Of a stretch of 64,000 nt of DNA, positions 5,401 to 60,044 are shown piece after piece; the first letter of the stretch is position 1, and each line of letters opens with the position of its first letter. Made by a program: the position numbers and the translations under genes. Location of the stretch: contig CM114271.1 of the NCBI GenBank assembly GCA_050084515.1, forward strand, positions 21,204,001 through 21,268,000. Reading direction: 5' to 3'. The notes under the pieces were generated by a model. That model was not told the origin of the DNA. It made no database searches and was given only the letters and a program-made list of their open reading frames with translations. Origin of the DNA: Blasia pusilla. Taxonomy: Eukaryota.

Positions 5401-8400
5401 TACATTAGATAGTTACAAGAGGACTTCGGTCAGTACCCAACAAGCCAGTGAATGATGCTCCCGTCATAGCTGCCACTGACAAAGAGTTCCTCATGAAAGG
5501 GATGCCATGCCAAGGCTGCCAAAAACCACAACTATGTTAGTCAAGGGGCTTCATGCCTACAGACACAATGAACACGTTCCTGTTGTACCAAGTTAGGAAG
5601 TCCAGAATTGAAAAGTATCAAAAGGGAGTAAAATAAGCACAACTATGAAGGCAGTGGTACCCACATGTGACCTCCTTCCGATGTCCTCTATAAGACTCCA
5701 GTTCTTTCAAAGTCCGAATGTCATATAGCTGCATGGACACGTGTAACAGGTCGATGAATGTTGCTTTAGTACACCCTACACAAGTAATCCACCAAAAAAA
5801 AAACCTGTGATCTTGACCTACTGAACAATTGTAAGGAGTAGTTACCTTAATAGTCTGATCACGGGAAGCAGTGATAACCCAGTTTCCATTACTATTCCAC
5901 TTAACTGAGAGAACTGTGTTTTTGTGTCCGTGTCTGCAAGGCAACAGTCATGTGAGCAGAATTCTAATGAATGGTTTTTAGTCACTGATATTTGCAGCCG
6001 TTTCAATCACCCATTTGGTCCATGCCATCAAATGAACTATACAATCTGCTGTGAATTTGTTCTATCTTGAATTGGAACATGTACACTGACCAACAAATCC
6101 CACGACAAACAGAACAACACAGGCAGTCAGTTACTCACAATGTGCTGAGTTCACGTCCTGTTTTTGCATCCCATAGCTTTACCAGATTATCCTTTGCTCC
6201 TACAGTAGCCCAAACCACAAAGAGTTACCCATCAATTCGAATTCAGCTGCCATGGTCATGCACCAAAGAAGAACCACAAGGATCAGCTTGGAGGTTACCT
6301 GACACAAGCAGAGACTTTTGAGGATGCCAATCAACACTCTTCACATCCCAGCCATGGCCTGCCCGATTGAAAAAGCACATCCACGACCCTTGTCAATTTC
6401 CGTCTGCAGCTCGTGAACATTCTCCCTGTCCAGTTTGCCCTCACTGCACACGGGTACATCATATGAGCATGTAAGGTCTCTCCAGACCCTACAAAACTCC
6501 CTCTCCCTTATCACTATCTCTACCATTGATGGATAAAAGGCTATCATTTACATTGATTGACAAGTATCCCTTTCCCACCAGCAACCAAGCATTGAGCACA
6601 AATTCAATGGCTTGTCGTTGTGCCCTGAAGGAAAATGATCCACGCCTTCTTTCATGCCTTTAGGGCTGGCTCAATGGAGCTATAAATGCAGACTTTCACC
6701 CAAGAGACTGGGAGTCCCCACACAGCTCCAACAACTGGATTTAGACCAGAGTTTGAAGCATTGAAAATTTGCAGTAACATTATCCCCATAGTTCTCTGAA
6801 ACGCTTTCAAAGGTAGTCCCAGTACAAATCTGGAACACCGTGTGATATCATCATCATTCCTGCTCTCATATCCCCATCCAACCTTTTGAGTTTTGTTTAG
6901 TACAAATAGGGTCTGGGATCCAAGGCCAAGGGGCTATAGCAGGAAGAAAGAGTTCTGGAGCTTTGCCCTGCTTCCAATGTCAGATTAACTCTTCAGAATC
7001 TTCAATTCTGCACCTCCAAATTGAACATGAAGGGTAACTTGAGGTTGAATTGCACTGTACCACGAATGATCCCAAGCAGATGAGAATAACACTCTGAGAT
7101 GGACGTATTTGAGACAACTTTCTATGTCTGAAGACAGTTTTAATTTAAGCTGGCTACAAGTTTTGATATTCATTTGGTTGAGGATGGCATAGATAGGCTC
7201 TGGTTGTGTCTGTTCACCCCGGTTTATGTTCCTCCCTTTTCTATTGGCAACCCATGAGAAAAGGATTCTCACCCATTCACTCGTCTTTAACTCCTTTAAG
7301 CATCCTGGATCATTATTTTACTACTGCTTTGGCCCACAATGCATCCACCAAAGAAAGGTCACTGTTTAAGAGTGAAACAGCGAAGGAAAATGCCAGTTCC
7401 AAAGCTATAACCGTACATTCAATTGGATCTCTTGGCCTTTCAAACAAAGCCTCCATTTTGTGGTGTAGCCCAAATAGAGCGTGATAGGAGAAAAGTTCTA
7501 AAACATGAACCTCAGTACAATATAATCTCTAAATAAAATATCCCTTGGGTTGAGCAGAAAAAACCAATCTGACCCAGATGCCTACAGTAGATTCCTCAAC
7601 ATAATCATTCTGAGTTTCTCAATTCCAAGTGACTTTTCTTGTTCCAATTTGTGCATGAAGACTTACTTTCATCTGCTATTGGCTGCAGTTGTCCAAACAA
7701 AGACTGTGAATCCTAAACTAAACACTTCAGAAGATAACAGACTCAAAAAAGAAGGCGAGGAATTGTATCATACCAGCTAGTGATCGTTCCTCTTGACAGC
7801 GTGCAAAGTCCCACACTTTGACAGTTGTGTCGTCAGAACACGAACAAAACTTCAGGTCTGTGCTGGAGAAACTGGAAATTAACCCACAGATTATGGTAAA
7901 ATAAGTGCTTCAAGTCTTTGAAAGTAATCAGAATTGTTAGGCAAACACAGATTACATGTTTGTAATCTGTGTTTGCCTTCCGCAAAACACAGATTAAGAT
8001 CTTCCGCAAAATCAAAATAAAATTATCTTTAGCCATGCTCCATTGCCACTTTTGGCAGACCTGAAGCTCTCATCTCTTAAACAAGGACCTACTATATTAC
8101 ATGACTAAGCATAATCCAACACAAGAACAAATAGACAAAACTATTACCAAATATGTGAATGCGTCTTAGAGAATTTGATTGTGTGCCCTGGATCAAAATC
8201 TCTGACACGGTCAAAAAGTTGAGAGCTCATACCTCAAGTCCCGCACCGCCTCCTTATGGGCCGTCTTGTTGGCCTTCACATTATTCATATTCGTCTGCCA
8301 GTACCTACAGAACAAGAAGATAGTGTTATAACCAGTAGCACTTCAAGGAGAAAGCATCAGGAACCTATCACCAAGAAAGCTCCTGTTTCCTTAAACGCGC

Positions 8401-12111: not shown

Positions 12112-13120
12112 GTAGGAGCTTCAAAATGCCCCCTCTCTGTGTCTCTCCTAGACCGCCTGATCGCTTGGAACAACAACGGTGACAGCAGCAGAAAATTCCT
12201 TCGGAGTCGAACGTTTCGAGATTCGCGGCATCATTCGCCAACTTAGCGTTCGTGGGCAGGGTTCGGGGAGTTTTCTCGCGGGACGCGGTCCATCGCCGGG
12301 AATGTCCAATCGGCAACGGTAATTCCGGATTTTGAACCGGTTTTGAGATACGAAATACAAAGGACCTTCTCGAATTCCAGCCGGTTTTCGTAGGCAACTT
12401 CAAAATCAATCGGGAATTCTCAACTTTAACCGGCTAGCAATATTCGTAACCCCGGATCTCCCCGTTCATTGTTCGTGGGAGCGACCAAAGAGTACTAAGT
12501 CCCAGTGCATTCATGAGCTTCTTCTTCTTCCTCTTTACTTTCGTTGTCTTGTTCCTCTTGTTTACGACGTTTGTTTCTTTGCTCATATCAAACCTAGACC
12601 TGGGACTTCCATTCCTTAGACTTCCCTTGTACGGCAGTGCGTGCCTTTTGGTCGTTGCAGCACCCAAGTTCGGCATGGCAGTTGTAGTTGGGTACGGAGG
12701 AAATTTTCTCACTATGGGAGTAGGAGACACCTGGAAAAATATGACGTCCCACAACCGAAGAGGATATTCGGTGACAGGATGGAGAAATTCTTAAGAGAGT
12801 ACAAGAGATGTTTTGGGGTGGGGGTGGAAGTCATAGGAAACATGTACGGTCATGGAGAGTGGAAATGGATTGATGTGTTGACTGAAAACGGACAGAAGAT
12901 TTTTGTGAACCGGAGACGAAAACATGGAAAATTTTGAGTGGAAACTTCCCTACAATTTTTGAAAATTTTGGATTTGGCCGTCCGAAGGAAAAAAGGATAG
13001 CAGCCATCTACGATTCGAGTCCCACGAGTGGCAATGCCTTTGCATGTGCTTGACAAGTGTCACTAAATGTCTCTCAAATACACTTTTGGTCACAATACTT
13101 GGTGACCTTGAAATATGAAT

Positions 13121-13334
13121 TACTGGTTACTACTCGTTAGGGATGGTGCGATGCTCGTTCCTATACATATACGCGCTCGGTCTTGAAATTATACATGTAT
13201 ATGCGCCGGGTTTGAAAAAAATGCCACGCGTCATATTTTGAAGATGTCGCCATTTCATAATTGCTCCTCAGATTATGGTATAGATTGTATAAGGATATGT
13301 GCATCCCACAATCCCTTACAAGCGATTACTAGTA
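13121..13334. mobile_element. Degenerate MITE-like element
   Basis: Imperfect terminal inverted repeats of about 34 bp: tactggttactactcgttagggatggtgcgatgc versus gcatcccacaatcccttacaagcgattactagta. No ORF. Confidence 0.4.
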
Positions 13335-13764
13335 ATACAGATGGAGAGATGCTATCCTAAACTAAAGAAGATGGGATAAGGTTATACTAAATTACTAATA
13401 ATTGAGAATAAAAATGTAATTCAAATTGATTACAACTCTAAGACATTGTTTTTACATATGTTATAGATCTCTTTTTTGTTGCCCATATTGTCATGTGTCA
13501 TATAACCAAGACATGAGTTTCGCCTCATATCATCCAACCAAGGTTTGGAAAAGTACGAACCCAATCTTGTGACTATGGTCTAAGTAATAAGTGAGTAAGG
13601 CAAGGCAAGACTTTGACCCTAACATAGGGGTGGATCCATTTAAGTAAGCAAAGAGAGACTTGACTTGGGACAATGCTATAGCTAAAGATAACTCATTTCT
13701 CCACTTGAGAAATGGGTAGTCAAGTCAAGTCTGCACGTTTGTATTATGCCTAGAGGGTCTCCAT

Positions 13765-14265
13765 TGTCTCATCTTTTAGGATAGATTGACAAGTTTTGAT
13801 AGAGCACCTTCAAGGATATTGGAGGACAACCTCAAGAGGTCGAGGATGACTTGCTTATGCCTTGGGTAACTTGAGCGAGCATGTTTCCCCTTCATTTCGG
13901 CTTATTTGGAGTAATATATAGAGAAGCTAATTTTTTCGGGTAACTTATCGTTAGAGGTAGAGTTTACTTTCCACTTTGGGAAGTCCCTATTAACCTCCTA
14001 CAGCATGTCAAGAGCCAAGGATGTGACCTGCGAGCATAGGTTACCATGGAGAGAGTTTGGGATAAAGAAGGGGCTATATCCAAGGAGAGAGAGCTTTGGA
14101 GCTCATTCTCTCTTTGTTAAACTTATTGGCATGAGGCGGAGAAGTTATGGTCCTCCTTACCTTATGAATAACCCAAGCCTCTCATTAGGAGAGTAGGTTT
14201 AGTTTGACATAAGTGAGAGAGAGAGAGATGAAGTTTGTGTGTATATTGTGAGACATTTGAGTGTT
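13765..14265 (+). repeat. Terminal repeat A (LTR-like), 5' copy
   Basis: Starts TGTCTC and aligns by eye with 22841-23335 and 56386-56870 (both start TGTCAC). Shared catagg ttacc/tatggagagag, gagctcattctctcttt and cattaggagagt...tttgaca. Confidence 0.85.
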
Positions 14266-15334
14266 TCGAATTACAAAGAGAGAATAAGAGATTAAGAGCT
14301 CTACAATTCGGAAACTCGTTGGTGTCTCACTGTTATTGTAGGTTAGGGAATGTGTTCCTTGTTTAGCGGCTCAAGGGAGTGCTCACAAGAGCAAGGGCCG
14401 TTCATTTGAGTGTTTTGTCAAGAAGATTTTCCTACATGAGAGTGGCACACAGAAGCACTACCCAATTTTTGATAGATTTTGAGTAAGGGGACTAAGTTCT
14501 CCATACACCTTGAAGTCATGCACGTTGTTAAAGAAACGGTGGGCAATTTTGATATTGGAGCTCAAAATTCTGGTCTTTCTCATATTGTTGTCATAGCCAA
14601 CGTATGAAATTAGAAATTTTGAGATCTTGTAACTCCTTTTGGTGGAGTTAGAAAAATAAAAATCCTTTTATTTTAGTGCACAAGGCAAAGGAAAATTTTA
14701 TTTGAAGGTGGAAGTGAGTGAAAACTTTCTTTAGTGGGTGTTGATCCAAGGTTTGTGGGGCTTAGTGGAGTAGAAGCCAAATTTGACATAATTTTAGTGA
14801 GTTGATCCTCCTTTTTAAGGGGTTAATGGAGGGGGAAAAAAAAACAAAAGACATTGACTCGTGAATAAGGTAAAAATAGAGCCATGTTTACCCATGTATA
14901 ACATGATATAATTACCTTTGATTTTCATTGACCATCTATCGTTTAACCACCGTCATCTATGTAAGAATCGTCAACGTACTACCGCTCATCGCTTCTTTGT
15001 TATTGCCAATGAATGGGGTCAAGTTTTGAGTATGGTGTGCCATACAAAGTGATTGGTATCCCCTTCACGTTGATCGAGTGCTATGGTGTGACGCGTGTAG
15101 CCTCAACGCGCCACCAATTATCACGTCGTGCTGCTCGTGGCTGCACTACACCGTCTCAATCTCGGAGCTGTACCAGTACTAAAGAGTATAACATATATTG
15201 CCAATAGAGAAGGAGATTACGCTCCTTGTTGAATCCCATCATCAAGTGCCATGTCGTTTGTAGCCGTTCCATGCCGCCTGTACCGCATTGTGAATCGAGA
15301 TAGTATGAGTATCGTTAACATCGGGGGATTAAGA

Positions 15335-15687
15335 CTAACATCCTACTCAACATGTCATGTCATGTAATGACATGGAAAGTGTAGTTATGATTGAGTCATT
15401 TAAGACACGTGTTGTCCATCATTAGTGACTATAATATCATCTTCATGCCATGTCATACGCGAATGTGGCATAGTGACGTGGCACTCACACATGGTAGATT
15501 AGTCATATATCCATGACTAAGTAATCAATGACTAGAGTTATTTACCAATCGGGTAGCCCTGGTTATTTCCTCTAAATGACTTGGTTTATATGAATCTAGC
15601 GGTCATGAGTCATTCTTAGTCATTTACCATGAAAAATAACTCGACCTAGTCATTTTTTTGTCATAAAAACCAAGATTTCCTCTAGTG
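15335..15687. mobile_element. CACTA-type DNA transposon end fragment inserted in gypsy copy 1
   Basis: Ends in gatttcctctagtg (reverse complement CACTAGAGGAAATC) with repeated tagtcat/atgacta subterminal motifs. Absent from the homologous position of copy 2 (about 58005). Confidence 0.5.
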
Positions 15688-17490
15688 TTGCCAACTGGAG
15701 AAGTTTTCACTATGACCGAGTTGGGATCAAGGTTTGCAATTATTAAGGAGCAACATCGAAATTATTTTTAGGTCTCCTATTCTTGTCTTTTACCCTACAC
15801 ATGTGAGGGATCTTCCAGTATTCGATAGTTATTTGGGATGTTGGGGTTTATGCAAATGTTGAAAGCATCATTGATCTATATGGTTAGGGGATATAGACAT
15901 TTGTGGGATGTCTAGAGTTGAGGGTAAGCCATGTCGATGAGATGATATACCAATAGGAATTTTTTTGCATCACGTCGCTTATTGTCACACTACCTACATC
16001 TTAGTGGGAAGTAGTGAAGATTGAGTGTCGCATGTTTAGTTTTAGTGATTGAGGGATCGATAACTTATAACTTGCGAGGTTGAGAGTGATCGTGTGAGGG
16101 AGCATGAGGATCCTCAAGACGTCTTTTTGGGACTTTGAGAAACAAGCTGGTGTGCTTAAGAGTAGCTCTCGAGCTTTTACATGCATTGGTGCGAGGTTTT
16201 TTAAGTCTCCACATGAGGGAGAATCTCAACCTCTATTTGTGTCATTCCTAGATGAGGGAGAGGGCACATAGGAGTTTTTTAGTACGTCACCACACATATT
16301 GAGTGGTCATATCATTTGGTCGTATGAGATGGATAACCGGGGTAGAGGATACGTGGATTTTGGGAGTTGTGGGTACTATAGAGTAGCACAAATTCATTGC
16401 GGAATTTAGGAGTTGGTGTGACTCACAAAGGGCTGGGAACTCCACACAGTTCAACCCTTTCACAACATGGAACGGGATGTTCCAACAACTAGAGAGGGTA
16501 CCCATGGACTATTACCATGAGTTTTCCCATAGACATGCATCTGAGATTGACGCCTAGAGACTCTACTATGACCCACATTATATGTCATGGACTGAGCCAT
16601 TTCTAGATAAGAAGGAGTTGCTAGGGGAGTCCACTCCCTCTACTACTAATGAGAGTTAGGAAGGGGTGAGTCAAAGTGGGGCAGTTGCATTGTCCAGTCA
16701 TGTTCATCCTAGGTTTAACCCCATGGTTGAGTTCTTTGCAGAGTTGAGGAGGAACTATTAGGATGTATAGATTGAGAAGTTGCGAAGCATCCACGAGTTC
16801 TCTAGGCGCACAAGGAAGAGTTTATAGGAGCCATTTACTCATCTGCATCAATTGATTAGTGTCACTTAGGCAGTGAGAGAGGCCAGGGTTGTTTAGGCAT
16901 GGTACGGGATGCTAGAACGAGACCTGCAGAAATGGGTGAGGGATGCAATATTGCGAATACGCACCTCACCTACGTTGAGAGATGTCTTTGAGTGGTAGAA
17001 TGCATTGAGCGTAACATGGTCGAGGAGAGTGTAGTAGGCATGAGCCACGTGCGAAAGTAGTCACGATTATCTGAACCACCAATGCAGCAATATGGATTTG
17101 AGAGAGGATTATAGCATTGCGAGTTCAGGGAGATTATTCTGAGTATGTGCTATAACAACCCATGCCATCATATGCAGGTCAACAACATCCACTAGGAATT
17201 ATTTGTTGGGCATGTATAAGAGCCAATCGTCAGCATGATTGCATCTATTAGGATATTGGACGCATGCTCCAGCTAGGAGGAGTACATGGGCCTATACTAG
17301 GAGTATATCAATATGACCATTGCCAGTGTTATGGTCATACATGCGTTAGGTGTTTTAGCTTACACCTTGAGTTATGAACGGATTGAGGGACAGAGAGGGC
17401 ACCAAAGCAAGTTGGCGGTCCAGGGTGGGCCTAGAGGTCGTGTTGTAGAGGGAAGAGGAGTTGAATTTGCTTGTGGGGATGGTAGATATA

Positions 17491-20360
<2,870 letters not shown>

Positions 20361-22393
20361 GCTTTAGAGAGTCCTAAAAAAGTCATGATGGAGATTTGAG
20401 AGGCATATATAGGCCCTAATTTCATAAGAGGAGATGAGCGTCGGATACATCAACACCTTAAGAGTCATATGAGTTGTTTTTTATTTTGTATGTATGATTT
20501 GGTCACTATGAAGGGTCTAAGGATCCCCATTGAGTTTTCTAGTGACACTCTGAATTTTTTATGATCTTGCAAGTATAATGATATGGAGAGGGCCCTGATT
20601 AAAGTAGAAGCCAAGATAATGTTGGAGCAAAACTAGTGGAGACGTTGCATGGAGAGTATGCATTTGCTATTGTCATGCCCCCCAAGAAGGATAGGCATGA
20701 TAATTAGATGGATAGGCATATGTATGAAGACTACCGTACTATCAATTGGTTGATGAAGTCCGATAGGTGTGCTATGCCCACTTATGAGGAGATCTTTTAT
20801 GTTATTGGGCATTCAAATTAGGTCTTCCATTTTTTAGGTCTCTAAGTCGGATACCATCAATTGCTTATCAGATTGGAAGACAAGTAGAAGATAGAATTTT
20901 GGGGCATCAATCCAAATGGAAAGGATTGCTTGTATTAGTGGCGATTCTTACCATTTGGGTTAAAGAATGCCCCGAAAGAGTTTCAAAGGGTCATTGAGAA
21001 TCTTGGCATGTCTGGATTTTGCTAGATGTTATATTATGGCATCATAGTCTTTAGCACCACGATTAAGGAGCATGAGCAATTTTTGGAGGACATGTTTTGA
21101 CAATTGCACTAATATGGGCCGAAGCTACAATCAGGCAAGTGCAAGTTCTTCTACAACCACATTGAGTATTTGGGTTATATGATATATCCAAAGGATTTTG
21201 GTATTTATCTTAGGACATTCAACGAGAACGCAGATGGGTTGAGTTGTAACCCATGCCCGAGTCAACAAGATGTGACTAGAGCTCGTTGGCATGGAAATAG
21301 TGATGAGTTGATGGTGCTTGGATGATATACATCAACCTATTTGGGCTTGTTGGATATGGACAGTTAGAGTGTTGAGATTTCGATGTTGAGGTCTAATGGA
21401 AACCCTTTAGATCCAAAGTCCGGAGAGGAGGCAACAAGTGGTCAAAATATCCATGAAGATAGGGTAGTCTTTGAGTACCTCCACATCATCAACTTCACAA
21501 GAACAGGGGGTGCTAGAGAGCATGATTAGATTCTCTAGCGAGCCATACGGTTTTGGTGGGAGGGAATACTTGTGTTACGAGTTTGGGAGGATATATAATA
21601 TATCGGTGATGGTTGAGCACTTCTCAAAATGGATAGAGTTGGTAATGTTGCTTGACAAAGCAAGTAAGGAAGTATCATATACCTTCCTAGATCGAGAGTT
21701 GAGTCATTTTGGCGCACCATCTGAGGTGTTAACAGACCAGGTACAGAGTTTCATGGAGAGTTTCAGACCTTGTGCGATCATGCGTTGATCAACCACTACA
21801 ATGGTCTGCGAAATCATCTTGAGATGGATGGACTAGTAGAGAGAGTTTTTTGGATGATGAAGAGAGCTTTACGCAAGTTTGGCTTGTAGAGAGGTCACCT
21901 AGGAGATTGCAACCTACATTTGCAATAGTTGGCGATGGGATACAAATTAAGTAGATAGTCATCCTCAACATCTTTCTCACCATACTTGTTGCTTTATGGC
22001 CAAGAGCCTGATTTACCTATAGTCACTTGTTGTGATGTTAGTAAGGTGTTGAACCTCGATGATCTTGATAAATGGATGTGAGCATGTTATCATAGGGTTG
22101 AGTTATTTGAGAGAGTTATGCCCATGATGTTTGAGAACTTGGCGATTGCACAACATCGAGATATTGTGAGGTATGCGACTCTTCAAGGAGGTGATTATTG
22201 ATCGGCAATCCATAGGTTTCATTGGGGAAACTATATCTACTTGCAGAAGACGACATCTACAACATTGGATATGACCGTGGGGCGCACCATCTTGAGAGTA
22301 TCTGATGTATTTCCATCTAATGTTCTCTTATTGGAGAGACGCAATGATGGTATAATTGATTCAAGTTTAGTAGTAGTTCTTATAGGCTTGCGT

Positions 22394-22528
22394 TGTATGT
22401 TGTGTGGGTCTACCCGTCGTGCGACCACTATGCTAGTCTGTGATGGGTGTTTGAGACGGTAGCACATGGCATGTCTGACGCTACCTCTCACTAGGGTTAC
22501 TCAAGGATGATGGATGTGCCCTACATAT
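22394..22528 (+). pseudogene. PHD finger remnant at the C-terminus of the retrotransposon integrase region
   Basis: CMLCGSTRRATTMLVCDGCLRR*HMACLTLPLTRVTQG*WMCPTY fits C4HC3 PHD spacing, with two stops and the last Cys changed to Tyr. Confidence 0.85.
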
Positions 22529-22840
22529 ACATAGAGTAGAGACTAGGCAGTCATAGATCTAGACTTTTATTTGTGGCATAGATGACAAGAAGGCGACGAA
22601 CGATGGGGCCACATGCGCATCTTGCTTTTTTGCTCTTAGCGTCCTAAAGATGTATGTTATGGAAGATAGGGATAGATGGTTATCTAGAAGTAGAGGGACC
22701 TAACCACCAGTTAAGGGGCGATTGGAGATATTTTGGTACTCAATCGTAAAAAGTTTTAGATCTCATGAGTTAGTATGGTATCTTGTGTGTATGTGTATGC
22801 GTATGTGTCTGCTGACAGCGATATATAAGTGCACAACAAT

Positions 22841-23335
22841 TGTCACATCTTTGAGGATATATCAACGAGTTTTAGAAGAGTGTCTTCAAGGATACTAGAT
22901 AACAACCTTGAGAGGTTGAGGATAACCTTCTTAGGCTTTGGTTAACCTAAGAGAGCATATTCCCCTTTCATTTCGACTAATTTGAGCAATATATAAAAAA
23001 TCTTTCTATTTTGGGTAAGTTATTGTTAGGATTAGAGTTGATTTTTCACTTTGGGAAGTTGCTCTTAACCTCCTACAAAATATCAAGAGCCAAAGAGATG
23101 ACCTGCAAGCATAGGTTACTATGGAGAGAGTTTGGGAGAGGGAAGAGGATACACCCAAAGAGAAAGAGCTTTTTGAGCTCATTCTCTCTTTGTTGAACCT
23201 CTTGGCATGAGGTGGCGAAGCTATGATCTTGCTTGCCTTGTGAAAAATCCAAAACTTTCATTAGGAGAGTGGGATGGTTTGACAAGAGAGAGATGGAGTT
23301 AATGTTTGTATGCACATTCTAAGACATTTGAGTGC
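22841..23335 (+). repeat. Terminal repeat A (LTR-like), 3' copy, flanked on both sides by repeat B
   Basis: Aligns with 13765-14265. Repeat B (attgg.gatatttt..tactcaat...tatggtatcttgtgtg...ag.gat.t.ta.g.gca) lies at 22721-22838 and 23345-23470. Confidence 0.85.
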
Positions 23336-25199
23336 GTGTGATTTATTGGGGATATTTTTTTACTCAATTGTCTCGATTTTTAGATGGCACGTGTCAATAT
23401 GGTATCTTGTGTGCTTGTTTGTGTATTCGGTGGGAACGATGTATGTTGTATAGTGATGTGTATGCGCATGATTCTACCGATGTAGAGCATGCTCAAGGCA
23501 ATGGGTTTATATGGCGGGCTTAGATTATGGAAGCAACCGTTGCTAGAGGCCCTCTTATTTGCAATAATATTTCCTTAGCTTTTATTGATGCTTTTTCTAC
23601 TCTTGATGGGGTGAGATTTCAAGGGGTTTTCCGAGTTTCTTTGGCCCCATGCAAGTCAGACCTCAATATTCTCTAATTCTCTTTATTCCCCTTCATGTTC
23701 TTATCACATCTTAGTTAGTCGATAAGTAGAGTTCTACCGCGTCGATGACATAGAGGGTTAGGGGGTTATTCAAGTGTCACTTTGTCCTAAGATGTTGGAT
23801 GAGCTTGGCGACAAGTCCGTTGCGTCAAGAATATAATTTTTAACATTTTCCTATTTTGATCTTAGTCAGTCAAGTGACTCGTTGAATGAGTCAACAGTCA
23901 CACGGTAACCTATGCACGCATGTTACCGGTGGGATGACTATTTTTGGGAGAAGAGACTTTTGGCTTTTCCCAAGGCTATAAGAGAGGGAGAGATGGCTTT
24001 CTAAAGCCATTTTTCTTATGTTGGATCTTAAAAGCACCTCTCTTACTTGTATATGTAGGAACTAGGACGCTAGTGTCAAGATTTCCTCATATATATTTCC
24101 TCATAGGAGGATGGATGTGGCTCGATATGGCGATGTAAATTCAAGAGTGGATTTTTAGGCTGGGTAAGCCGTTTGTACTCTACTTATTTTTGTGCAGTCT
24201 TGGTGTATATGCATGAGTATATTTCGTTCATGGATGGATCGACTTTTGTGTTGGGAAGATCGGTATCGTGTGGTATGTAGATGTGACCAACGATGTCGAT
24301 TGTGTAGCGATGTATATGCGCACGACATTCTTATGATGAATATGTTCCCCCAATCTTATTTTAGTCAAGCATTGTATAGAATACTTCTTGCAATGGATAA
24401 TTCAAGGCCCAAAAAATTCACACATATGAATGGTTGAATTTATGTTAACCCCCGTAAAGCTTATATACAAAATTTTTAGTCCATCCATGTAGCGTCATTT
24501 GGAATATATGAGTAAACCATGCTCATTTAGTGCATTGGCCCCCATTTTTCATATTATAATTTTTTTTTGAGTATTCAATTTTGAAGTTATGGTAATGGAT
24601 ACCATATATTAAATTTCCCAGGAGAATAAAAATTTTTGATTGAGGGGTCTAGAAACAAATACTTGAAAAATGACAACGATGAAAAATAGAAATGGAAAAT
24701 TTTCCCAATTGAAGGGAAACATCAAATTCTTGCAAGTGAACTCTTTCCAAAAAATACCTCTTAGGATGAAAATCAAATAACATATTTTTTTAGAGATATT
24801 CCTATAATAAAAGTTGATAGAAGTTTGAAAATTTTGCCTTATGAAAATTTAAATGTGTGAAACCCTGGTATACACAAGTTCTAATGCTAGATTTTAATAT
24901 GTGTAGTTAACAATAATATTTTTTTAAATAAAAAACATTTATTTGAAAATTTAAGACTCTTCACTTGCCCATACATAAACATCCCAAATCTTTTAAATAA
25001 CTTTTTTATTTGATCAAAAGTAAACCTTATTCTCTATTTTGTCAAGGTCGCCCAACCAAATGCTAAAGACTAGATCAAGAATTTTAAGAAGTTGAGATAT
25101 ACATATACATTCGGTACTTTAGTCCTAATTAGCCTATCGTGTGGCAACATGCATATGCAACTCATCTAGCTCCAAATAATTGATTAACTTCATCTTGGC

Positions 25200-26949: not shown

Positions 26950-28680
26950 CTAGAGATATATATGAGTTGATGGAGTAGGGGCACCCCGTAGTGTACTAGG
27001 CAGTGGTAGGGGTTATGGTGTAGGATCAAAGGGCGGTTGTGGTGGTTGTAGATTTGGTGATGGTTAAGGACCCCTGATCACTACAGGCGGTTCGGTCGAC
27101 AATTACCTCTTTACCATGATGAAAAGGATGGATCAGTATATGGATGCCTTATTGAGATTGCATCATTCACCTAGTGTTGGGCTGGGTGGTGGTTTGACTA
27201 TGATGCCAAATAGTGATAATGAGTTAGCGAGTTTGGGTTTCATGTGTGGTGTCATATAGGTGAATACAAGCATTATTATGACTAGTAGTGTGGCTAGAGC
27301 ATCTCGACCATGAGGTGTTGATGTGGAGTTGGACCCATAATGAGGAGAGGTTGGTTGGAATAGGAAATAGCCATAGTCTTCTATATTATCAAAGATAGTG
27401 TTGATCCTATCAATAGGTCCTAGTTAAGTAATTTGGTTTCTAGTGAGGGATCAAGTAAATCAATTGCGCTATGAATTTGTTGATCGAGAGTTTAAGAGCT
27501 CAAGAGGAGCTATGACCAACTAGGTTTTTGGGTGCGGAGATGGCGGTGAGCCAATCATCTTTATTTTCAACCATGTATATGGTGATGTTGAATGTAGGGC
27601 CAACTAAGGTATTTGGATCAGAGGCCACACTCAATGAGAGCTATGGCATGATTCCATCTTATTTTGAGTTAGTGGAAGATGCAATGGTATCTCTGGGTGG
27701 GGAGGCGAGTATGCAATTGTCAATTTTGGCAAAAAAAGGAGGCATATGATAGGTAAAAATAACTTGGATGGAGGAGATAGTGCACAACTCGCAATTGAAT
27801 ATATGTAGGCTATCCCTATTTTTTGCCTTTCTTGTTTACTCAAAGGGTGTGGTTTGTTAGGTTGGGCCCTTTCATATGGTGTATAAACTAAATCGCATCC
27901 TCCATGACTCTAGAGCACAATCCTTAGTTGGGTCATGCAAAAAAATTGGATTTGGCATTTATTAAATACTAGTTGGAGAGGAATTCATTTTAGATTCTAA
28001 CAGCCCTTGGTAATTCTAGCATGCTACAATTCATGATGCGGCAAGAGTTTATGGTGAGGATGCATTTAAAGCATCCTTCCGAGAAATTGATGGCGAGGGC
28101 TTGAGTGATGGTGACCATCATTGATTTGCATGATATGCTTGTTGGTGGTGTGGTGTTGTGTCCCATGAGGTTCAATTTGGATTATCGGGAGAAGTAGGCC
28201 TCCTACCTCCTACAATTAACACAACTAGTTTATGACTACCAATCCGATTGGTAGTCATAAACTAGTTGTGTTAATTGTTTTTAAGTGCGTATGATTTGCA
28301 ATGTCAATGGTAAGTAGCGGGCTACCATAGCAAATATTATGGCATGTTGTTAAGGGATGAGTTGGGTTGATAATGTGTGGAAGAATTGATTGGTATCGGA
28401 ATGGGATTTGCTCACAATATACCATGTTGTAAAGATGATGTTGGTTGGTATGACACTATGTGTGGATTAGGGCTTAGTGGTGGGTCTATGTGAGTTGTTG
28501 CAACATATTATGGATCAATACATCATCCAAGCATGGAGTGAGCCCTTCTTCCAAGAAAGTGAGGAAATTATCAATTTATAGAGGTGAAGTGGGACAAGTA
28601 ATGTTGGTGCATTTTGGTATGTGGGATTTTTTGGTGGATTGTACGCGACCACCATATCCTTGTTAGAAGGGTGATACTTG
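26950..28680 (+). mobile_element. Strongly decayed gag-end/protease segment, probably of the same gypsy group as copies 1 and 2
   Basis: Remnant HDMLVGGVVLCPMRFNLDYREK*ASY (28130-28206) resembles the retropepsin C-terminal D-h-h-h-G motif; G/T-rich decayed coding sequence; possible FFGGL motif near 28625-28650. Confidence 0.5.
28212..28278. repeat. Perfect palindrome: 33-bp arms, 1-nt spacer
   Basis: acaattaacacaactagtttatgactaccaatc-c-gattggtagtcataaactagttgtgttaattgt. Confidence 0.97.
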
Positions 28681-32061: not shown

Positions 32062-33973
32062 GTGCCCATACTAAGATGAAAAGTAGAATGAAGAGAAGGT
32101 TTTAATAATTCAATTAATTCCTTTAAGAAAATTTACATTTGACAAGTAGGAATTAGTAATACAATTAAATTGTAACTGAAAAAGATGTCATACAAAATTT
32201 CAATCGTCCTAAGTCTTCCTCATGTTCATTATCTTTGGAAAAAAATAGAACAGTAGGATGAGAATTATTCTTCAAAATGATGAGATCAATGCTTTTTCTT
32301 CTCTACTTTTAATTTTCAAGCTTGGTTGGGAGGAGAATTTAAATTCTATTTTAGAATTAAAATGAGTGATTTTATTTGTCACTACTAATAAATAAATTTA
32401 GTAGTAACTTTTCATTATTTATAATAAATAAACGCGTTTGTTAATTGAGAGAAGGCAAATGGAAAAGGAAACAAGAAAATTTCTATATCAAGCAAGGGAA
32501 AAGACATTTTTTTCCAGATCTAAGATAGAAACCCATTCTCATCAATATTCAAGCAAAAATTAACTTTTGCTATTTTTTGTCATCTGTTAAATTGCAGAAA
32601 TTCAGCATGTGCCAAATGTCACATGACTTCACATCATCATTGTCCACATGTTTTCATTTCCAACCATTGACCTAGTGCATAGCATGAGCCACAAACAAAA
32701 ATGCTAGTGAAGGTCTCGTGCAATCTTGGAGGTGTGTTAGCCTCCCAAACTCCCAAATGTGATATTTTTCCAATCAATTTTATTTTATGAAAATAGGAAA
32801 ATATGTTCCTAGAATCTAGAAATAAAAGAAAAAGTAAGGTGTGCAGTTTTCCTAAAAATTTGGGCAAAATTGGATGAAGTATTAATAAAAATTAAGTTAT
32901 TATAAAAATATGGTCGTGTTAATTAGGGACTCATATTTCAAACTGAAATATTAAAAGAATCGTTTGGTGCTACGAATAAATAAGGAAAAACTACCCCCGG
33001 TACTCATAACAAATCTGGACAAAATCAATCAGTTTGAATGATGGATAAAATAAACTTTACATGGTTGGAAATAAGAGATTGCGGGCGTGAACTATGCCAC
33101 AAGGTGCATTTCAATATCATAGAAAAATAATAAATACGACGTGATATTTGTCGATAAACTATCTCCATGGGACTTGCAAAGGTGCGGAGTTTCCACGCGC
33201 CCACCTCGAAACGCGCGGAAAAGAGGCGGCTTTGCTGAGGCAGGGCCGCGGGGGTCTCTGCAGAGTTCCGGAAGAGGCAAAACGCGGCGAGCGGTGACTG
33301 GAGCGCAGCGTGTCCGTTGTCCCCGATGTATGTTTCCTCCGATGCAGCGCTGCCTCCTGTGGACCTGCGTCCGCCGGTCGCATCGCGCAACCAGAGCATG
33401 CGTGAGCAAGACGCTGCGGGTAGTGCGCCGCAAGGTTGACGAGCCCTCGCCTCCTCGCAGCCCCGGAGGCCTCCAGCCGCGGAATTCCATGCCCCGCAGG
33501 TGCCGAGCGAGCGATGAGCGTTTATCAGTGCGACAAATGCGGAGTCGAATGCTTTCCGGAAGCCTCCTCGATCTGCTCCAGCACTTCTTCCTGAGGTCGT
33601 GTCACCGGCTGCTTCTGGTCATGGTCTGTTAGGTCACAAGCATCTGAGGAAATGTATCGTTATCTCGTTACTGTGGGTGGAAGAAGATACTCTATCCGCA
33701 AGAATCATTCATGAAAGTGGAAGATACTGCTGCAGCGGTGGGGCCCTTGCTGGTGCGTGGGGTGGCTGACTGACTGACTGACTGTGATTCGTCGTGCTAT
33801 GTCTGACTTCGAGCTTGATCACCTGTCCCACTTACAAGCAAGTTCTCGTGAGTTTGGCTTTGGCTTGGGGTTGATCTTTACTGCTGCAGCGCAAGTCCGG
33901 AGGGCGAGACGAGACGAGACAAGAAGAGAGGTGAGGAGTTTGGTGGGGTGAATGTGAATGCGAACCTGTAAAT

Positions 33974-35341
33974 ATGGCGACACGCACCAAGAAGCTCGGG
34001 CCTCTGGTCCGAAGGCGAGATGTGGATTCTTTCCTAGGCGGTCCGGGAAGGAGAGCGCTACGAATGCAGCATTGCGGGGAGAGCCTTGGTGGTGGCAGGT
34101 TTGAACTGGCTCGGTCAAGGAGGCTGCAGGGGCTGGAAAGGGGTCATGAAATCATGGATAGCATTGAGGTATGGGAGAACCAGCGAGAGGAGGGGCGCTT
34201 ACTAGCAGGGGTTCCGGATGAGATCACTCTCGATCACATTCTCACGAAACTGCCATGGACGATGCTGTATACCCTCTCGGTACTGAACCGCGCCTGGCGC
34301 GAGGCGGTGATAAGCAGGAGCGTCTATAACGCGCGAGTGCGCACCAATTCATCCCAGACCCTCGTTGCCATATTTCACGAGCCGCCAGCATCTGTCATTT
34401 TGACCGGTCGAAAGATGGCTATCTCTGTCTACGATCCGTCGACAGATAGGTGGCATCTCCTACCTCCTATTCCAGATGTTCGCAGTGGTATACCGAGCAG
34501 CTGCGGCTGCGTCTGCTTGAATGGTGAGCTCTACATCTTGGGAGGCTACGACGAAAGCAAGGGGTGCGAGAACTGGGTAGCCAGGAATCAAGTACACTCC
34601 TTCGATATCGGAGCCGCTCAGAGGAACTGGAGGCAACGTGCCAGTATGCACAGCAAGAGAATCAACTTCTCTTGTGCTGTGAAGGATGGCAAGATCTATG
34701 TGTTTGGAGGACAAGCCAGCTTTCGAGGCGTGTTCTCCGAAAAATCAGAGGTGTTCGATCCCGAGCAGAATTCGTGGCATTTCATCGCACCCGTGCTTCA
34801 CCATTGCTTAGGCAGGAAAGCAATAGTGGTCGGAGACGATATTTATGTGCACGGTGGAAACTTCCATAATCAGCTCGAGGCGGATTTCGCTGAAGTGTAC
34901 GATACCCTCAAGGATCAGTGGAGGGAGGTGAAGAAATTCACTCATCCCGAGCAAAGCATCAGATCAGACAGATTGGTGGTGGTCAATGGCAAACTCCATG
35001 AAATCTATGGCAATTACTTGCTCGTGTACGACGTGGCATTGAATTCGTGGAAAGCGATCCAATGCATCTCGTGGGATGTTCTTGAGCGATTTGAAGCCAA
35101 CCATTTCCGTGCTGACGAAGCTGTCACTGTTGATGGCCAACTCCTCTGTCTTGGATGCTGGAAGAAGTTCAGGATTCGCAGGACGGAGTACGGGATGCAG
35201 CAGATGATACTAGGCATGGGGCAGATTCTACTCAAAAGCAAAGGGCTGGGTTGCAGAGATCGCATACTCGACTGGGAGATCGTCAACTGTCCATACTCCT
35301 TCTGGATAATGTCGTATTGCCTATGTCTCGTTAGGGTTTGA
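33974..35341 (+). CDS. F-box/kelch-repeat protein, intronless, up to 455 aa
   Basis: F-box LLAGVPDEITLDHILTKLPW...LNRAWREAVIS; kelch blades GELYILGG, GKIYVFGG...EVFDPEQNSW, DDIYVHGG...EVYDTLKDQW. The true start may be a later ATG (34064 or 34154). Confidence 0.92.
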   Translation: MATRTKKLGPLVRRRDVDSFLGGPGRRALRMQHCGESLGGGRFELARSRRLQGLERGHEIMDSIEVWENQREEGRLLAGVPDEITLDHILTKLPWTMLYTLSVLNRAWREAVISRSVYNARVRTNSSQTLVAIFHEPPASVILTGRKMAISVYDPSTDRWHLLPPIPDVRSGIPSSCGCVCLNGELYILGGYDESKGCENWVARNQVHSFDIGAAQRNWRQRASMHSKRINFSCAVKDGKIYVFGGQASFRGVFSEKSEVFDPEQNSWHFIAPVLHHCLGRKAIVVGDDIYVHGGNFHNQLEADFAEVYDTLKDQWREVKKFTHPEQSIRSDRLVVVNGKLHEIYGNYLLVYDVALNSWKAIQCISWDVLERFEANHFRADEAVTVDGQLLCLGCWKKFRIRRTEYGMQQMILGMGQILLKSKGLGCRDRILDWEIVNCPYSFWIMSYCLCLVRV

Positions 35342-37579: not shown

Positions 37580-37775
37580 AAGAGAGAGAGAGGAGCAGCG
37601 CGAGGATGAGTGGGGAAGGGAGTGGGGAGCAAATTAATAACGAGGCGTTCCTGACTAGCCCGCGAGATTCAGAGAGAGAGAGCAGCGGGAGGATGAGTGG
37701 TGAAGGAAGGGGGGAAGCAATTTAATAAGGAGGCGTTCCTGACTAGTCCGCGAGATTCAGAGAGAGAGAGAGAGA
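37580..37775. repeat. Two-copy tandem duplication, unit about 90 bp
   Basis: gagcagcg.gaggatgagtgg...attaataa.gaggcgttcctgactag.ccgcgagattcagagagag occurs twice. Confidence 0.85.
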
Positions 37776-37846
37776 CGGTACTCATTAAGTAGTGCCTGTC
37801 TTAGCCTTGCGACCATAGACCCCGCGCCCTGGTTGGACGGTGCTTG
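37776..37846 (-). mobile_element. About 70-bp retroposon unit (3' end of the LINE at 957-1400) inserted in a (GA)n tract
   Basis: Reverse complement caagcaccgtccaaccagggcgcggggtctatggtcgcaaggctaagacaggcactacttaatgagtaccg is nearly identical to 1334-1403, with GA repeats on both sides. Confidence 0.85.
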
Positions 37847-38837
37847 GAGAGAGAGAGAGAGAGAGAGTGCAGGCAGCGCGAGGGTGATAGAGATCGGAGA
37901 AGTCCTTCGGATCTCACCCTGTACACGTGTACAGCATTGCGTTTTAAATCTTCGTGCAGGCAGCAGCTGGAGCCTTAGAAGCAGATTCAGAGAGTTGACA
38001 GCACTCTGCGAGGAGTATATAGCACGTCCAAGAAAGGATCATTAAGCTCGGCCGAGTGCGCGGAATTTCTTGTACAACAAGCAGCGCGTAAGGTTGGATA
38101 GACCGCGAGGCGGAGAACGCCGATGTCAACTACAGTATGCGACATCTGATGACAATGGATTCAAACTGATTTACGTCGTCAACTACGTAGAGCAAATATC
38201 CAGGCGATGAATCTGAACGGGAAGGACGCTGAACTGTATTGCGAGGATTCTTGTCGAGGTAAAACTGTCAATAACGTCCAAGAAAGGCTGATGTCCATGT
38301 ACCAATTAGCAGTCTCTTTAATTTGCAAGCGGATGGGATATTGCAAATTAGCTTTAGTTCTCATATTATCTGGAAACGTGATGACAAAATCATGACTGAT
38401 ACTCACCTAGTTTATAGATCGATCTGGTAGTTTTAACGTTTTCGTATGATCGCACTAATAGATTTAGATCTGCCAATAAATTTATTCTCTAATGTCGTTG
38501 ATACAGTGCTAGATCTTGGAAGGAAATTGGAGTCGACATGATTCTTCGAACTAGGACTGGGCGCAACACAGCTCCTACGCTAGCTAGGCTGCCGTTATTG
38601 CCATATTCTAAAAACTCATTTCATAAATCTATTTGAATTGCAGTGTGTTGAACAGTTTTGCAGTCTATCTAGTCTTACGTTGTATGGAATTTCATGGAAC
38701 AACTCTTGTGGACCAGGTCGAGGTCGGATAATCCTGTCTGGCAGGCGTCTTGAACAACGAATGTTAAAAGGAAGCCATTTGACAAGGGGTCAACAACGCA
38801 CTATGAGCTTCTCGTAAGAAACAACAATTTGACATGA

Positions 38838-42928: not shown

Positions 42929-43318
42929 AAACATTTTCTCATTGTCCGTAGGCTAATGGGATTTTGCGGCGGGCTCAGGCTGTGGGAGACGCCGGCGCTA
43001 GAGGCCCACTTAGTAGTAGTCATAGCTCTCTTGTTGTTGCTGATATTGTCTCTGCTGTTGGTGAGTTTCGTCGTTAGGGGGAATGCCCCCTTCTTCCTTT
43101 TCTGGTCCTGTTGTGGCCTTCAGGTTTTGACTCTTTGAGTCCCCCTCTTTTGTATTTCCGATGGGTTTTCCATCACTCGTTTTTATCGAAGTGCATCTTT
43201 CTTTCCCTGGCACAGGTTCTAAAGAAGAAAGAATTACCTGGACCACAATGATGACAACATGGAGAAGACGACAAACGCTCGAACAAAAAGAGTTACCTGG
43301 AAGCGCCGTCACGGCCAG

Positions 43319-43709
43319 GCAACAATCTGCCGAGCTTTGAATCGAGGGAAGGACAGGTGGGGCATATCCGACATTGCCGGAACGATCTCCTTGTTGCCGT
43401 ATTGTTGTGCGGTACTGGTGTGACCGAAACTGTTCTGCGGACGCCATCTAGCCATCTGGGTGGTCCCATACACTTTGCTGGACTGGTGGGCCCCAGCCTG
43501 GCAACCCTGTCACTGACTCGCTCGCTGTTACGGGGTCGGGAAGGAACGTTCTTATACCGAGGGAAGTCCTTGCAACTGCCAAGACTCGCGGCCCCTGACT
43601 GGCAGTTGGCCGTGGCGTGGGATCTCCGCCATCGCGAGTTGACCGCGACGGCAATGTCGGATATGCCCCACCTGTCCTTCCCTCGATTCAAAGCTCGGCA
43701 GATTGTTGC
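43319..43709. repeat. Perfect 61-bp inverted repeat with a 269-bp spacer
   Basis: 43319-43379 is the exact reverse complement of 43649-43709. Confidence 0.95.
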
Positions 43710-44353
43710 GTTCTTGGATCATGATCGGTGACCTCCTCTCGGCGTTCTCCTGCGTGTGCTTCGCTTCCGAGCGGTGCGTTATCGATTTTGTTTCCCAGGC
43801 TCGCCTGTGTTGCAGAGAGAGAGAGAGAAAATCAAGGGATTCGGGGGAGGGAATGAATCACATGCATTATTGTCCACGAGGAGCCCAAGGGCCGTCGGAC
43901 CTTGATTAGCTCATTGAGAGAGAGAGAGAGAGAAGTGACTAAGGAAAGCGCACACGGCAAGAGGAGTGGGAAGGATTGTGCTGGCGGGAGGAGTGCGAGG
44001 TTGCGATCGGCGTACTCGTAGTCGACAGAAACGTTGAAGAGGAGGAAAGGGATACGAATTGCGAGGCCTGTTGCAGTGCTGCTGCTGCCGCGGAAGTAGG
44101 AATCCTGCGACTCGGCCGGAGCTCTTCGCGTCGTCCAGACCTCCGACTGCAAGGCTTCACCGCTCTCTCCCTACTCGTAGAGATGGTGAGAGCCGATCGG
44201 CGCACCGGAATCGGAAGCAGACACGTACAGATGGCGGGCGTGGTCTCCGAGCTCACGCGTCCGAGAGTGTGCGGAAGCGTCTGAAACGAGCGCGGGTCGG
44301 GGAGTAATCGCGGGAGGAATCGGTCTCCGACACGTTAGAGTCCGAGTCTCGAG

Positions 44354-45517
44354 ATGCTCGGCAAATTGCTCAGCAAGTGTCTGAGTTCGACGGGAGGGAA
44401 GGCGCTACGAGGCAACGACGGGAAATTCGAGTCGCTGTACGGGAGTCTGGCGAGCGGGATCGCCCGACTGGATGGGTTACTGGGCGCGGAGCCCGTTCCC
44501 CGATTCAGCATCCAGTGGATGCAGCTGGCGATGGAGTTCATCCAGTTCCTCCACTCCGCCGTGTTCCTCCTGGTGGAACAGACATGGCGACCGGCTCGGG
44601 AAACTCCTGGCGTCGTGGACATGGTGGACACGTACACCGACATGTCGAGAAAACTCCTAGACATGTGCAATTACATCAAGCAGGGCATCGACCAATTGGA
44701 GTCCTGCCAGATGTCCTTGGACCTCTGCCTTTCCACCCTCGTGTCGGGAATCGAAATCCTCGCAGTCCCACAGCACTCGACATCGCTTCCGGACTCCGCC
44801 ATCAGCAAGGTCGCGTCTTGCGTCGGCCAGCTGGAGAGGATGCAGGGCCGCACCAGTCGGAATTTGTGGGCGGAGATGCTGGCGAAGCTCGACCAGAGCG
44901 GCAAGAGCAGGCGGAGTGAAAAGCTCGTACATTTGCTGCAAAGATCGCACAGCGTGCTGCCGTCTACATCTCACCACCACAACAGTAGCAGCGATAGCAA
45001 GAAGGCGGCGGATCTGTCCGCAGTGATCATGGACGTTCAAGTGGTCGCGAGCTTCTTCTCGTGCTTGGTTCTGTGGGCGCTCACAGACCCGTCCGAGCGC
45101 TTCCGGTTCGCTTACCAGGTGGACGGGTCCATCGCCAACTTGACGGCGCAGTCGTGGGCAGCCTCGCTCTTGCGCTTGAACGAGAGGATGGTGTCGAGCT
45201 CGAGCAAACCCAAGGAGTCATCGAAGGGATCGCTCGCTCTGGTAGAGGTCCGCGAAGTGCTGGACTCGATCCGCGAATTGGCCGGGAAAATGGAGGTCGG
45301 ATTGAAGCTGCAGCAGCCGGAGGATGGCGATGGAGGGGGGGAGCGGGGCGTGCGAGCGATGGCGGAGAGCGCCAAGGCCAAGTTGGAGAAGATCAGGGAG
45401 GCCGTGCAGACGCTATCAATGCAGACCACCGAAACGTTTTCGGCGATTATTCAATGCCGCAAGAGAGTTTTGGACGCGGTCGTCGACAGTCAATTGCCTC
45501 GAGCCGTTACGCTATAG
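44354..45517 (+). CDS. BPS1 (BYPASS1)/ROH1-like DUF793 family protein, intronless, 387 aa
   Basis: FSIQWMQLAMEFIQFLH, MVDTYTDMSRKLLDMCNYIKQGIDQL, SWAASLLRLNERM and C-terminal FSAIIQCRKRVLD match the conserved blocks of this family. Confidence 0.85.
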   Translation: MLGKLLSKCLSSTGGKALRGNDGKFESLYGSLASGIARLDGLLGAEPVPRFSIQWMQLAMEFIQFLHSAVFLLVEQTWRPARETPGVVDMVDTYTDMSRKLLDMCNYIKQGIDQLESCQMSLDLCLSTLVSGIEILAVPQHSTSLPDSAISKVASCVGQLERMQGRTSRNLWAEMLAKLDQSGKSRRSEKLVHLLQRSHSVLPSTSHHHNSSSDSKKAADLSAVIMDVQVVASFFSCLVLWALTDPSERFRFAYQVDGSIANLTAQSWAASLLRLNERMVSSSSKPKESSKGSLALVEVREVLDSIRELAGKMEVGLKLQQPEDGDGGGERGVRAMAESAKAKLEKIREAVQTLSMQTTETFSAIIQCRKRVLDAVVDSQLPRAVTL

Positions 45518-59732: not shown

Positions 59733-60044
59733 TATTGAAGATTGAGTTACAGTCAAGCTCATGAGACACATGAATTGCTATATTTGGTACTCACACAAAG
59801 TAGGGAAGTTTAATCTTGGTTAGTCACTTAAGCACGATTATCTTAACTATGGTTAGTTAATCACAGTTAGTCTAACTCGAGACTATGGTTAAGGTAAGGG
59901 TTAGGTTTGCTTGTACATACCCTATATAATTAAGAAGAGGACCAGCCTCCACTCATTCTCTCATTGAAAATTTTGTTCTCCATGGTGGTGTGGGTGTGTG
60001 AGAGCCGTTTTCCACCAGTTATGGTTGTTTAGCAGTTTTCCACA

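Follow-up and report, generated by a model that had tools for sequence, protein, structure and literature searches.

Split direct repeats, in which a block A opens an element and the series B-A-B closes it, are a textbook mark of tyrosine-recombinase retrotransposons. How such repeats come to sit on a plain Gypsy backbone with a DDE integrase is the question raised by a stretch of 64,000 nt of Blasia pusilla DNA (contig CM114271.1), hereafter the window, in which coordinates count from position 1. It is well supported that positions 13765-23471 are one old, decayed Ty3/gypsy insertion. Equally well supported is that inserted copies of its family open with A (TG...) and close with B (...CA), a full copy having the order A, primer site, genes, G-run, B, A, B. 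The reading that we favor, with a probability of roughly 0.6, is that of a bryophyte Gypsy-DNMT3 element with TG...CA ends, whose layout would be generated via permuted long terminal repeats (LTRs) of composition B+A. The window's copy is dead and of no consequence for its host; the value of following it up lies in the family-level layout and in the permuted-LTR reading.

An earlier inspection made from the letters alone (the sequence-only reading) had proposed four blocks, A1, B1, A2 and B2, and all four were recovered with limits that agree to within a few bases (Table 1). In a blastn self-comparison, A1 matches A2 at 78.5% over 502 nt (13763-14263 versus 22839-23334, E 1e-113; 397/504 or 78.8% in global alignment), while B1 matches B2 at 76% over 79 ungapped nt (22721-22799 versus 23345-23423, E 2.7e-12 against the window; 81/114 or 71.1% globally). 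A further A block, A3, opens a second copy of the element (copy 2), with global identities of 72.7% to A1 and 67.8% to A2. The third B suspected downstream of the element is also genuine and full length (B3); it shares 61.6% with B2 and 55.3% with B1. A1 and A2 (78.8% versus 67.8-72.7%) and B1 and B2 (71.1% versus 55-62%) are mutually closest, which fits one insertion in which the members of each pair were once identical.

All A copies share the start TTGTC in a three-way alignment of A1, A2 and A3, and this start is preceded by unrelated DNA in A1 and A3 or by B1 in A2. Both A1 and A3 run directly into a common leader (13764-14395 versus 56385-57001, 74.6%), and a B profile finds three copies in the 64 kb, none of them upstream of A1 or A3. 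The B1/A2 join reads GCACAACA-AT-TGTCAC, that is ACAACA-AT-TGTCAC, as had been noticed from the letters. No TGG adjoins the end of A, the nearest one lying 43 nt off, and no purine run adjoins A2.

Pfam scans of open reading frames (ORFs) of at least 40 amino acids (127 in 13000-25000 and 86 in 55500-64000), together with a three-frame reading, placed RVT_1 and rve on the + strand, and the A-ORFs-B-A-B arrangement does sit on a DDE-integrase element. The integrase region and its PHD finger were matched by tblastn with residues 736-1063 of the relative P0006 (E 2.6e-70; P0213 matches as well), a protein in which Pfam calls a PHD finger at 1022-1066. The main copy is without protease, methyltransferase and most of RNase H, of which a stump is left after the reverse transcriptase (RT). 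A foreign chromovirus fragment occupies the site of the missing protease and methyltransferase, between gag and RT; it adjoins a long CT/GA microsatellite (17543-17660). Copy 2 is rearranged and is interrupted further on by copia pieces. Elsewhere in the window, a family fragment holds a methyltransferase remnant (61476-62574) that is 60% identical to the corresponding ORF of a metagenome contig (L002, E 1.5e-62) and is matched by P0050 too. From these pieces and the relatives described below, a family gene set of gag, protease, Dnmt3-like cytosine methyltransferase, RT, RNase H, DDE integrase and C-terminal PHD finger is well supported. Besides, a copia gag (60510-61298) and copia Pol_BBD/integrase pieces (63172-64000) lie after the RNase H of copy 2, and a third, heavily decayed family fragment covering the gag-protease region, 24-28% identical to Marchantia family proteins, lies at 27071-28575 (+).

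Split direct repeats would by themselves suit a tyrosine-recombinase element of the DIRS/PAT/Ngaro kind that owes its integrase to a nested foreign element. We consider this almost certainly wrong. No match to a tyrosine recombinase (Phage_integrase, PF00589) was found in the 213 ORFs of both copies or in 12 scanned relatives, and the + strand integrase-PHD ORF continues into the 3' untranslated region (UTR) and B, the same order as in the metagenome contig L003. Nor does the notion that split repeats are confined to tyrosine-recombinase elements survive: KnitGypsy-Dnmt3 of Klebsormidium nitens, a Gypsy element whose Pol contains Dnmt3, has repeats arranged as in DIRS (de Mendoza et al. 2018, Nat Commun 9:1341, PMC5890265, Fig. 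4c legend).

Whether B2 belongs to the element at all could be judged from the sequence behind it. If the element were an ordinary LTR retrotransposon with A as its LTR (A1 ... A2), B2 would stem from an older neighboring insertion, and the sequence-only reading had named exactly this as the finding that would overturn the split layout. In its favor, there is a third B some 850 bp downstream, with an A-like segment between. However, this neighbor turned out to be a unit of its own, A4-B3, which itself shows A and then B, and what had been put forward as a refutation thereby becomes support. A4-B3 starts 230 bp after B2, separated from it by unrelated DNA, part of which resembles 42950-43063, outside any copy; B2 is nearer to B1 (71%) than to B3 (62%); and the DNA upstream of A1 contains no internal part of a host element. 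The ordinary-LTR explanation is thus very improbable and already largely refuted. A then B recurs independently at A4-B3, which is the counterpart of a solo LTR, and on this evidence the split layout appears to be a property of the family and not an accident of adjacent insertions.

The identification of A4 draws on two sources. An A profile is collinear with 23691-24215 (E 0.006 for the segment alone, 1/200 shuffles as high; E only 1.5 within the whole window), and pairwise local alignment of A4 with A1-A3 is not significant (z at most 1.1). The second source is X1, the only DNA run containing the locus among the sequencing runs listed (a small share of the sampled words, 0.11); no RNA run containing it was found among the runs listed. 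Contigs of this public run were placed at 80% likeness on 17700-25000, a range outside which A1 and the leader fall, and the family is highly repeated in the X1 organism. The depth of X1 is unusable as a copy number, and the A:B:internal ratio was left out. Four X1 contigs pass from a B end, via a few letters, into 23702-23708, which reads TTATCACATCTTAG and is A-type. They differ from the window sequence and therefore represent other copies. In 5/5 B-to-A joins, a two-letter spacer stands between the B end (A.A.A) and T.TCAC, its letters being AT in the window and, in the four contigs, AC, AC, GA and AT.

A-type 5' ends have unrelated upstream DNA and no B in 3/3 cases (A1, A3, A4), and four B copies end in ...ACA followed by unrelated DNA (B3, the metagenome contigs L001 and L003, and, less cleanly, B2). 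In place of the two equal LTRs of a canonical element, the 5' end thus carries A only and the 3' end carries B. At the A-to-B joins, one letter stands between A2 and B2 and none between A4 and B3. TTCT stands on both sides of A4-B3 as a possible 4-bp target duplication.

Relatives in other genomes extend these observations. When proteins were searched exhaustively with the RT piece from copy 2, 27 matches below 1e-30 were obtained, from which 12 long ones were picked for a Pfam scan; P0004, P0012 and P0028 are among these 12. RT, RNase H and Integrase_H2C2 plus rve occur in 8/12, with a PHD finger in six of the eight rve-bearing proteins (P0006, P0035, P0047, P0061, P0080, P0097); P0050, P0071 and P0099 are without rve, and DNA_methylase is called in 2/12. 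The contig L002 has the gene order protease, methyltransferase, RT, and all PDB matches of its methyltransferase ORF (29/29) are DNMT3A, 3B or 3C. Its 34 protein matches include many Marchantia polymorpha 'hypothetical proteins', and its named relatives are from Sphagnum troendelagicum (93%), Calypogeia fissa and Sphagnum fallax; for RT, the nearest named fragment comes from Calypogeia fissa (73%). In L002, P0050 and P0171 the methyltransferase is placed between protease and RT, in P0099 behind RNase H, and these differing positions suggest two acquisitions or a move within the polyprotein. Judged by these likenesses, it seems well supported that the family is of a bryophyte Gypsy-DNMT3 type, possesses a PHD finger and is common across the protein sets of bryophytes.

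Only four metagenome contigs (L001-L004) can be aligned with the window at the DNA level (67-72%); a further one, L022, shares 54% protein identity with P0006 and has no DNA match to the window. None of L001-L004 or L022 reaches a 5' end, and a B-A-B repeat was not seen in the five loci examined (L001, L003, L016, L042, L026). The B profile does find a match in both L003 (E 1e-7) and L001 (E 0.005); it lies roughly 200 nt past the PHD ORF, the same place as B1. These two contigs share 88% identity over the ORF and once more over B. Their likeness ends exactly at the B end (...GACA), and what follows in either contig is unrelated and AT-rich. In L001, the stretch of 172 nt that precedes B and has the end TTTTCA-AT-TG may be an A tail (best z 2.6, 5/300 shuffles as high, not significant), and an nhmmer A profile found nothing in it. 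The seven loci in viral contigs are all distant (29-40% identity). A search of prokaryote contigs with an 18-nt A block returned 13 matches, all of them bacterial records and about the chance number estimated for an 18-mer in 596 Gb, and these were rejected.

Since L003, and perhaps L001, shows genes, B and then flank with nothing behind, the basic element could instead be A-genes-B with unlike ends, and A2-B2 and A4-B3 would be short non-autonomous A-B elements that landed alongside, head to tail. The isolated A4-B3 with its possible TTCT duplication would agree with that. We nevertheless find this alternative quite improbable. All five B-to-A joins share a two-letter spacer, which independent insertions would not; A2 is closest to A1 and B2 to B1; and the RNA of such an element would have no 3' copy of R or U3 and could not finish reverse transcription from the self-priming site described below. 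Moreover, the printed precedent gives A-coding-B-A-B as the structure of an element (PMC5890265).

The signals that could prime reverse transcription are placed at the limits of the repeats. The sequence-only reading had found no TGG tRNA primer site and no polypurine tract before A2. Both negatives hold (the window has no tRNA gene to compare with, and 13000-25000 has no Rfam family). Two other signals had been overlooked, a putative 13-nt self-priming site directly after A and a G-run before B1. The site after A is the perfect complement, over 13 nt, of a block inside A1, which we call block r (equivalents at 23181-23193 in A2 and 56720-56732 in A3). In copy 2, the site at 56879-56891 pairs over 10 nt, a G.U pair and 2 nt. 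A complement of at least 12 nt arose in 5/20000 shuffles of A1. Block r lies within the longest invariant run (20 nt) of the A1/A2/A3 alignment. It also falls inside 23175-23225, a core of 50 nt that is the only part matched by many diverged X1 contigs, with 18 loose ends to either side. The minimum-energy RNA fold from block to site closes on the stem in both copies, with a stability of z -3.7 in copy 1 (0/200 shuffles as stable) and z -1.9 in copy 2 (9/200). By its complementarity and predicted fold, the site after A has the anatomy of Tf1-type self-priming.

At the other limit, the G-run AAGGGG stands 4 nt before the TG that opens B1. Its counterpart in L003 is AGGGGGG, 5 nt before the TG, and the run sits in a block, GGACCTAACCACCAG.TA.GGGG, that is conserved there. 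The limits of the repeats hence coincide with the ends expected of LTR-type reverse transcription, the end of A being the primer site and the start of B a putative plus-strand origin.

These positions offer a concrete and testable route from ordinary reverse transcription to the split layout, and they are what the permuted-LTR reading builds on. The RNA would begin at block r inside A and end in A2. Its first 13 bases would fold onto the complementary site after A, where they would serve as primer for minus-strand DNA in the manner of Tf1, and plus-strand DNA would begin at the G-run before B1. After the first and second jumps, the product would be a linear DNA of the form (B-A)-genes-(B-A), in which the LTR is B+A (about 630 bp) with outer ends TG...CA. 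The integrase would then ignore the outer ends and act at the inner B/A boundary, CA-AT-TG. If the cDNA ends were joined head to tail, the A end to the B start as in a 2-LTR circle, one cut at a B/A boundary would yield A-primer site-genes-B-A-B, and the split repeats would be circularly permuted LTRs. Recombination between A copies could then give A-B units such as A4-B3, and recombination between B copies could give A-genes-B, perhaps as in L003. At the primer site CA is followed by A, and the TG of B1 is preceded by T, so that a blunt join of the ends with one extra base pair each would read CA-AT-TG; this sequence is found at the putative A-to-B join of L001. The differing A2-B2 and A4-B3 joins fit a new joining in each cycle and equally fit decay. 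LTR-LTR junctions can be cleaved by retroviral integrases. The sequence-only reading had spoken of a non-canonical regeneration of the ends. As a description this is fair; the signals suggest ordinary LTR-type reverse transcription combined with unusual integration ends, not a DIRS-like process.

A stronger form of the permuted-LTR reading can be stated more tentatively. In this DDE-integrase lineage, the ends of reverse transcription (B start, A end) might be offset from the ends of integration (A start, B end) by a module of 115-125 bp, and a joined intermediate cut at the inner palindrome might be required. We hold this possible, on the doubtful side. If true, it would be the first DDE-integrase retroelement dependent on a joined or circular intermediate, and it would provide a mechanistic link between LTR elements and DIRS/PAT elements.

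A replication of the DIRS/PAT kind without LTR strand transfers, the direction in which the sequence-only reading had pointed, has to be weighed against this scheme. A read-through RNA from part of A1 to part of B2 would be copied end to end with the B1/A2 join as template or splint, and the DDE integrase would insert the restored TG...CA ends. The layout is the same as that of PAT/Ngaro and of SymbioDIRS-Dnmt3, as far as these are described in the text available from PMC5890265; the B1/A2 join resembles an end-to-start junction; and a tRNA primer site is absent. However, the repeat limits match LTR-type signals, the self-priming site and a G-run 4 nt (window) or 5 nt (L003) away, neither of which a splint needs, and the primer for the 3' end of B2 is not named. 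We therefore regard this route as unlikely.

Several points weigh against the permuted-LTR reading itself. L001 and L003 show genes, B and flank with no A-B behind B, which calls for recombination between B copies, a short cut by the assembler or a different basic layout. A full A-genes-B-A-B copy was seen only once, its repeats being 21% diverged, and a target duplication was not found for this main element; the one around A4-B3 may be chance, as TTCT also follows B2. A4 shares no more than 45-49% identity with A1-A3. Each X1 join comes from one contig, of depth 3-5 at 80% likeness, and X1 is possibly the same sample as the window assembly. The G-run is short (six purines in the window, seven in L003), and the B end in other copies is mildly purine-rich (AAGAGA, GAAAA), so that plus-strand priming at the B/A boundary is possible. 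From the RNA start at block r onward the mechanism is inferred, no transcript start, cDNA end or circle junction having been observed. Finally, a 2-LTR circle has two B/A boundaries, and a cut at the other one would give A-B-A-genes-B, a form that was not seen but may exist. Such circles are normally rare dead ends, and the reliance on a joined intermediate is a weak point of the scheme.

Among the closest known systems, KnitGypsy-Dnmt3 has a Gypsy pol containing a DDE integrase, a Dnmt3-like methyltransferase in the polyprotein and A-coding-B-A-B repeats. Its host is a charophyte alga whereas the host here is bryophyte-like, and the PHD finger that ends the integrase here is a possible further difference. 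The main text of that paper gives no primer site, polypurine tract or mechanism (PMC5890265). K. nitens is not named among the 34 matches of the methyltransferase ORF, and the link to KnitGypsy-Dnmt3 is by description. A 2026 preprint, in the part available, refers to this algal kind of element as 'streptophytes (Gypsy-DNMT3)' (10.64898/2026.05.21.726589). Split or permuted repeats on Gypsy elements were found by our literature searches only in de Mendoza et al. 2018 and in a one-line mention in the consulted part of that preprint. The portions of PMC5784723 and PMC11982613 at hand contain nothing on the family. No paper accounting for the layout, describing it in land plants or tying it to self-priming turned up in our searches.

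With PAT-like elements, Ngaro, DIRS and SymbioDIRS-Dnmt3, in the descriptions available, the element shares the order A1-ORFs-B1A2-B2 and an inner join that looks like both ends united. Those elements carry a tyrosine recombinase and are not known to make a target duplication; the element studied here is without that enzyme, has TG...CA ends and perhaps a 4-bp duplication, and its relatives have an H2C2/rve integrase. With Tf1/Tf2 of Schizosaccharomyces pombe and the Tf1/sushi group, it shares a primer site next to the 5' repeat that pairs with a stretch inside the repeat and not with a tRNA. Tf1/sushi and Tcn1 elements have two equal LTRs and a chromodomain, whereas here the repeats are permuted and the integrase C-terminus carries a PHD finger in place of a chromodomain, according to the calls on P0006-type relatives and on the window. 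Self-priming has been predicted for moss Tcn1 elements (Neumann et al. 2019, PMC6317226, in the part available).

Canonical Ty3/gypsy elements are represented among the loci examined by L042, a metagenome contig of 6180 nt with a PHD-bearing Gypsy polyprotein and a plain LTR with a polypurine tract and a primer-binding site; the ends of the LTR read GGGGAGGA/TGTAAC...GTTACA/TTGGTCCC. With canonical elements, the family shares its gene order, its TG...CA ends and a G-rich run ahead of the repeat. Unlike canonical elements, the inserted copies described here have no 5' B and have an extra 3' B. Because this distant relative has a plain LTR, the permuted form would be derived. The first and last 37 nt of L042 are identical, and the contig looks circular or collapsed.

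Besides its layout, the element is relevant to the dealings of transposons with host chromatin through its own Dnmt3-like methyltransferase and PHD finger. There is also a practical consequence: since the proteins of the family are listed as hypothetical genes in Marchantia polymorpha and Sphagnum, pipelines based on paired LTRs will miss or mis-cut it.

Table 1. Positions of the repeats, signals and coding remnants of the element, of its second copy and of the neighboring unit.
Feature	Position	Strand	Basis or remark
A1, 5' repeat	13765-14275	+	start TGTC, end TTACA; upstream DNA unrelated
Block r inside A1 (ATTCTCTCTTTGT), proposed RNA 5' end / self-primer	14105-14117	+	complement of the site after A
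Putative self-priming primer-binding site (ACAAAGAGAGAAT)	14273-14285	+	complementarity; overlaps last ACA of A1
gag remnant	16363-16989	+	tblastn with Marchantia family protein, 45%, E 4e-45
Foreign chromovirus fragment (RVT_1, RNase H, Integrase_H2C2, SH3_Tf2-1, Chromo)	17948-20363	-	Pfam
Reverse transcriptase, with stops	20382-21286	+	Pfam, three-frame reading, tblastn
DDE integrase core, SH3-like part, C-terminal PHD finger, with stops	21600-22531	+	rve match, tblastn
G-run AAGGGG, polypurine-like	22713-22718	+	4 nt before the TG opening B1
B1	22723-22838	+	start TGGAG, end ACAACA
B1/A2 join CA-AT-TG, palindrome CAATTG	22837-22842	+	sequence; same two-letter spacing in four X1 contigs
A2, 3' copy of A	22841-23345	+	blastn, alignment
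B2, terminal B copy, 3' end of element	23347-23471	+	alignment, B profile
A4, diverged A-type repeat of sister subfamily, separate unit	23702-24213	+	start TATCACATCTT; X1 contig joins, A profile
B3, directly behind A4	24214-24327	+	end GACA, then unrelated DNA
Copy 2: A3, self-priming site, leader, gag (58648-59130), RT end and RNase H (59134-59733)	56387-59733	+	alignments, tblastn
A3, 5' repeat of copy 2	56387-56881	+	alignment with A1
Family fragment: Dnmt3-like methyltransferase (61476-62574) and RT start (62584-63429)	61476-63429	+	tblastn

The transposon islands of the window lie among host genes, which include a WD40 exon (5621-5947, -), an intronless Kelch-repeat ORF of 468 amino acids (33935-35338, +) and a ROH1-like ORF (44339-45514, +). 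A perfect inverted repeat of 61 nt (43319-43379 and 43649-43709, arms 270 nt apart) is found in a gap between host genes. An 86-nt unit occurs in tandem near 1400 (1333-1505) and inverted near 37800 (37759-37862), with 91-94% identity, and diverged tandem repeats of about 120 nt occupy 46143-46780.

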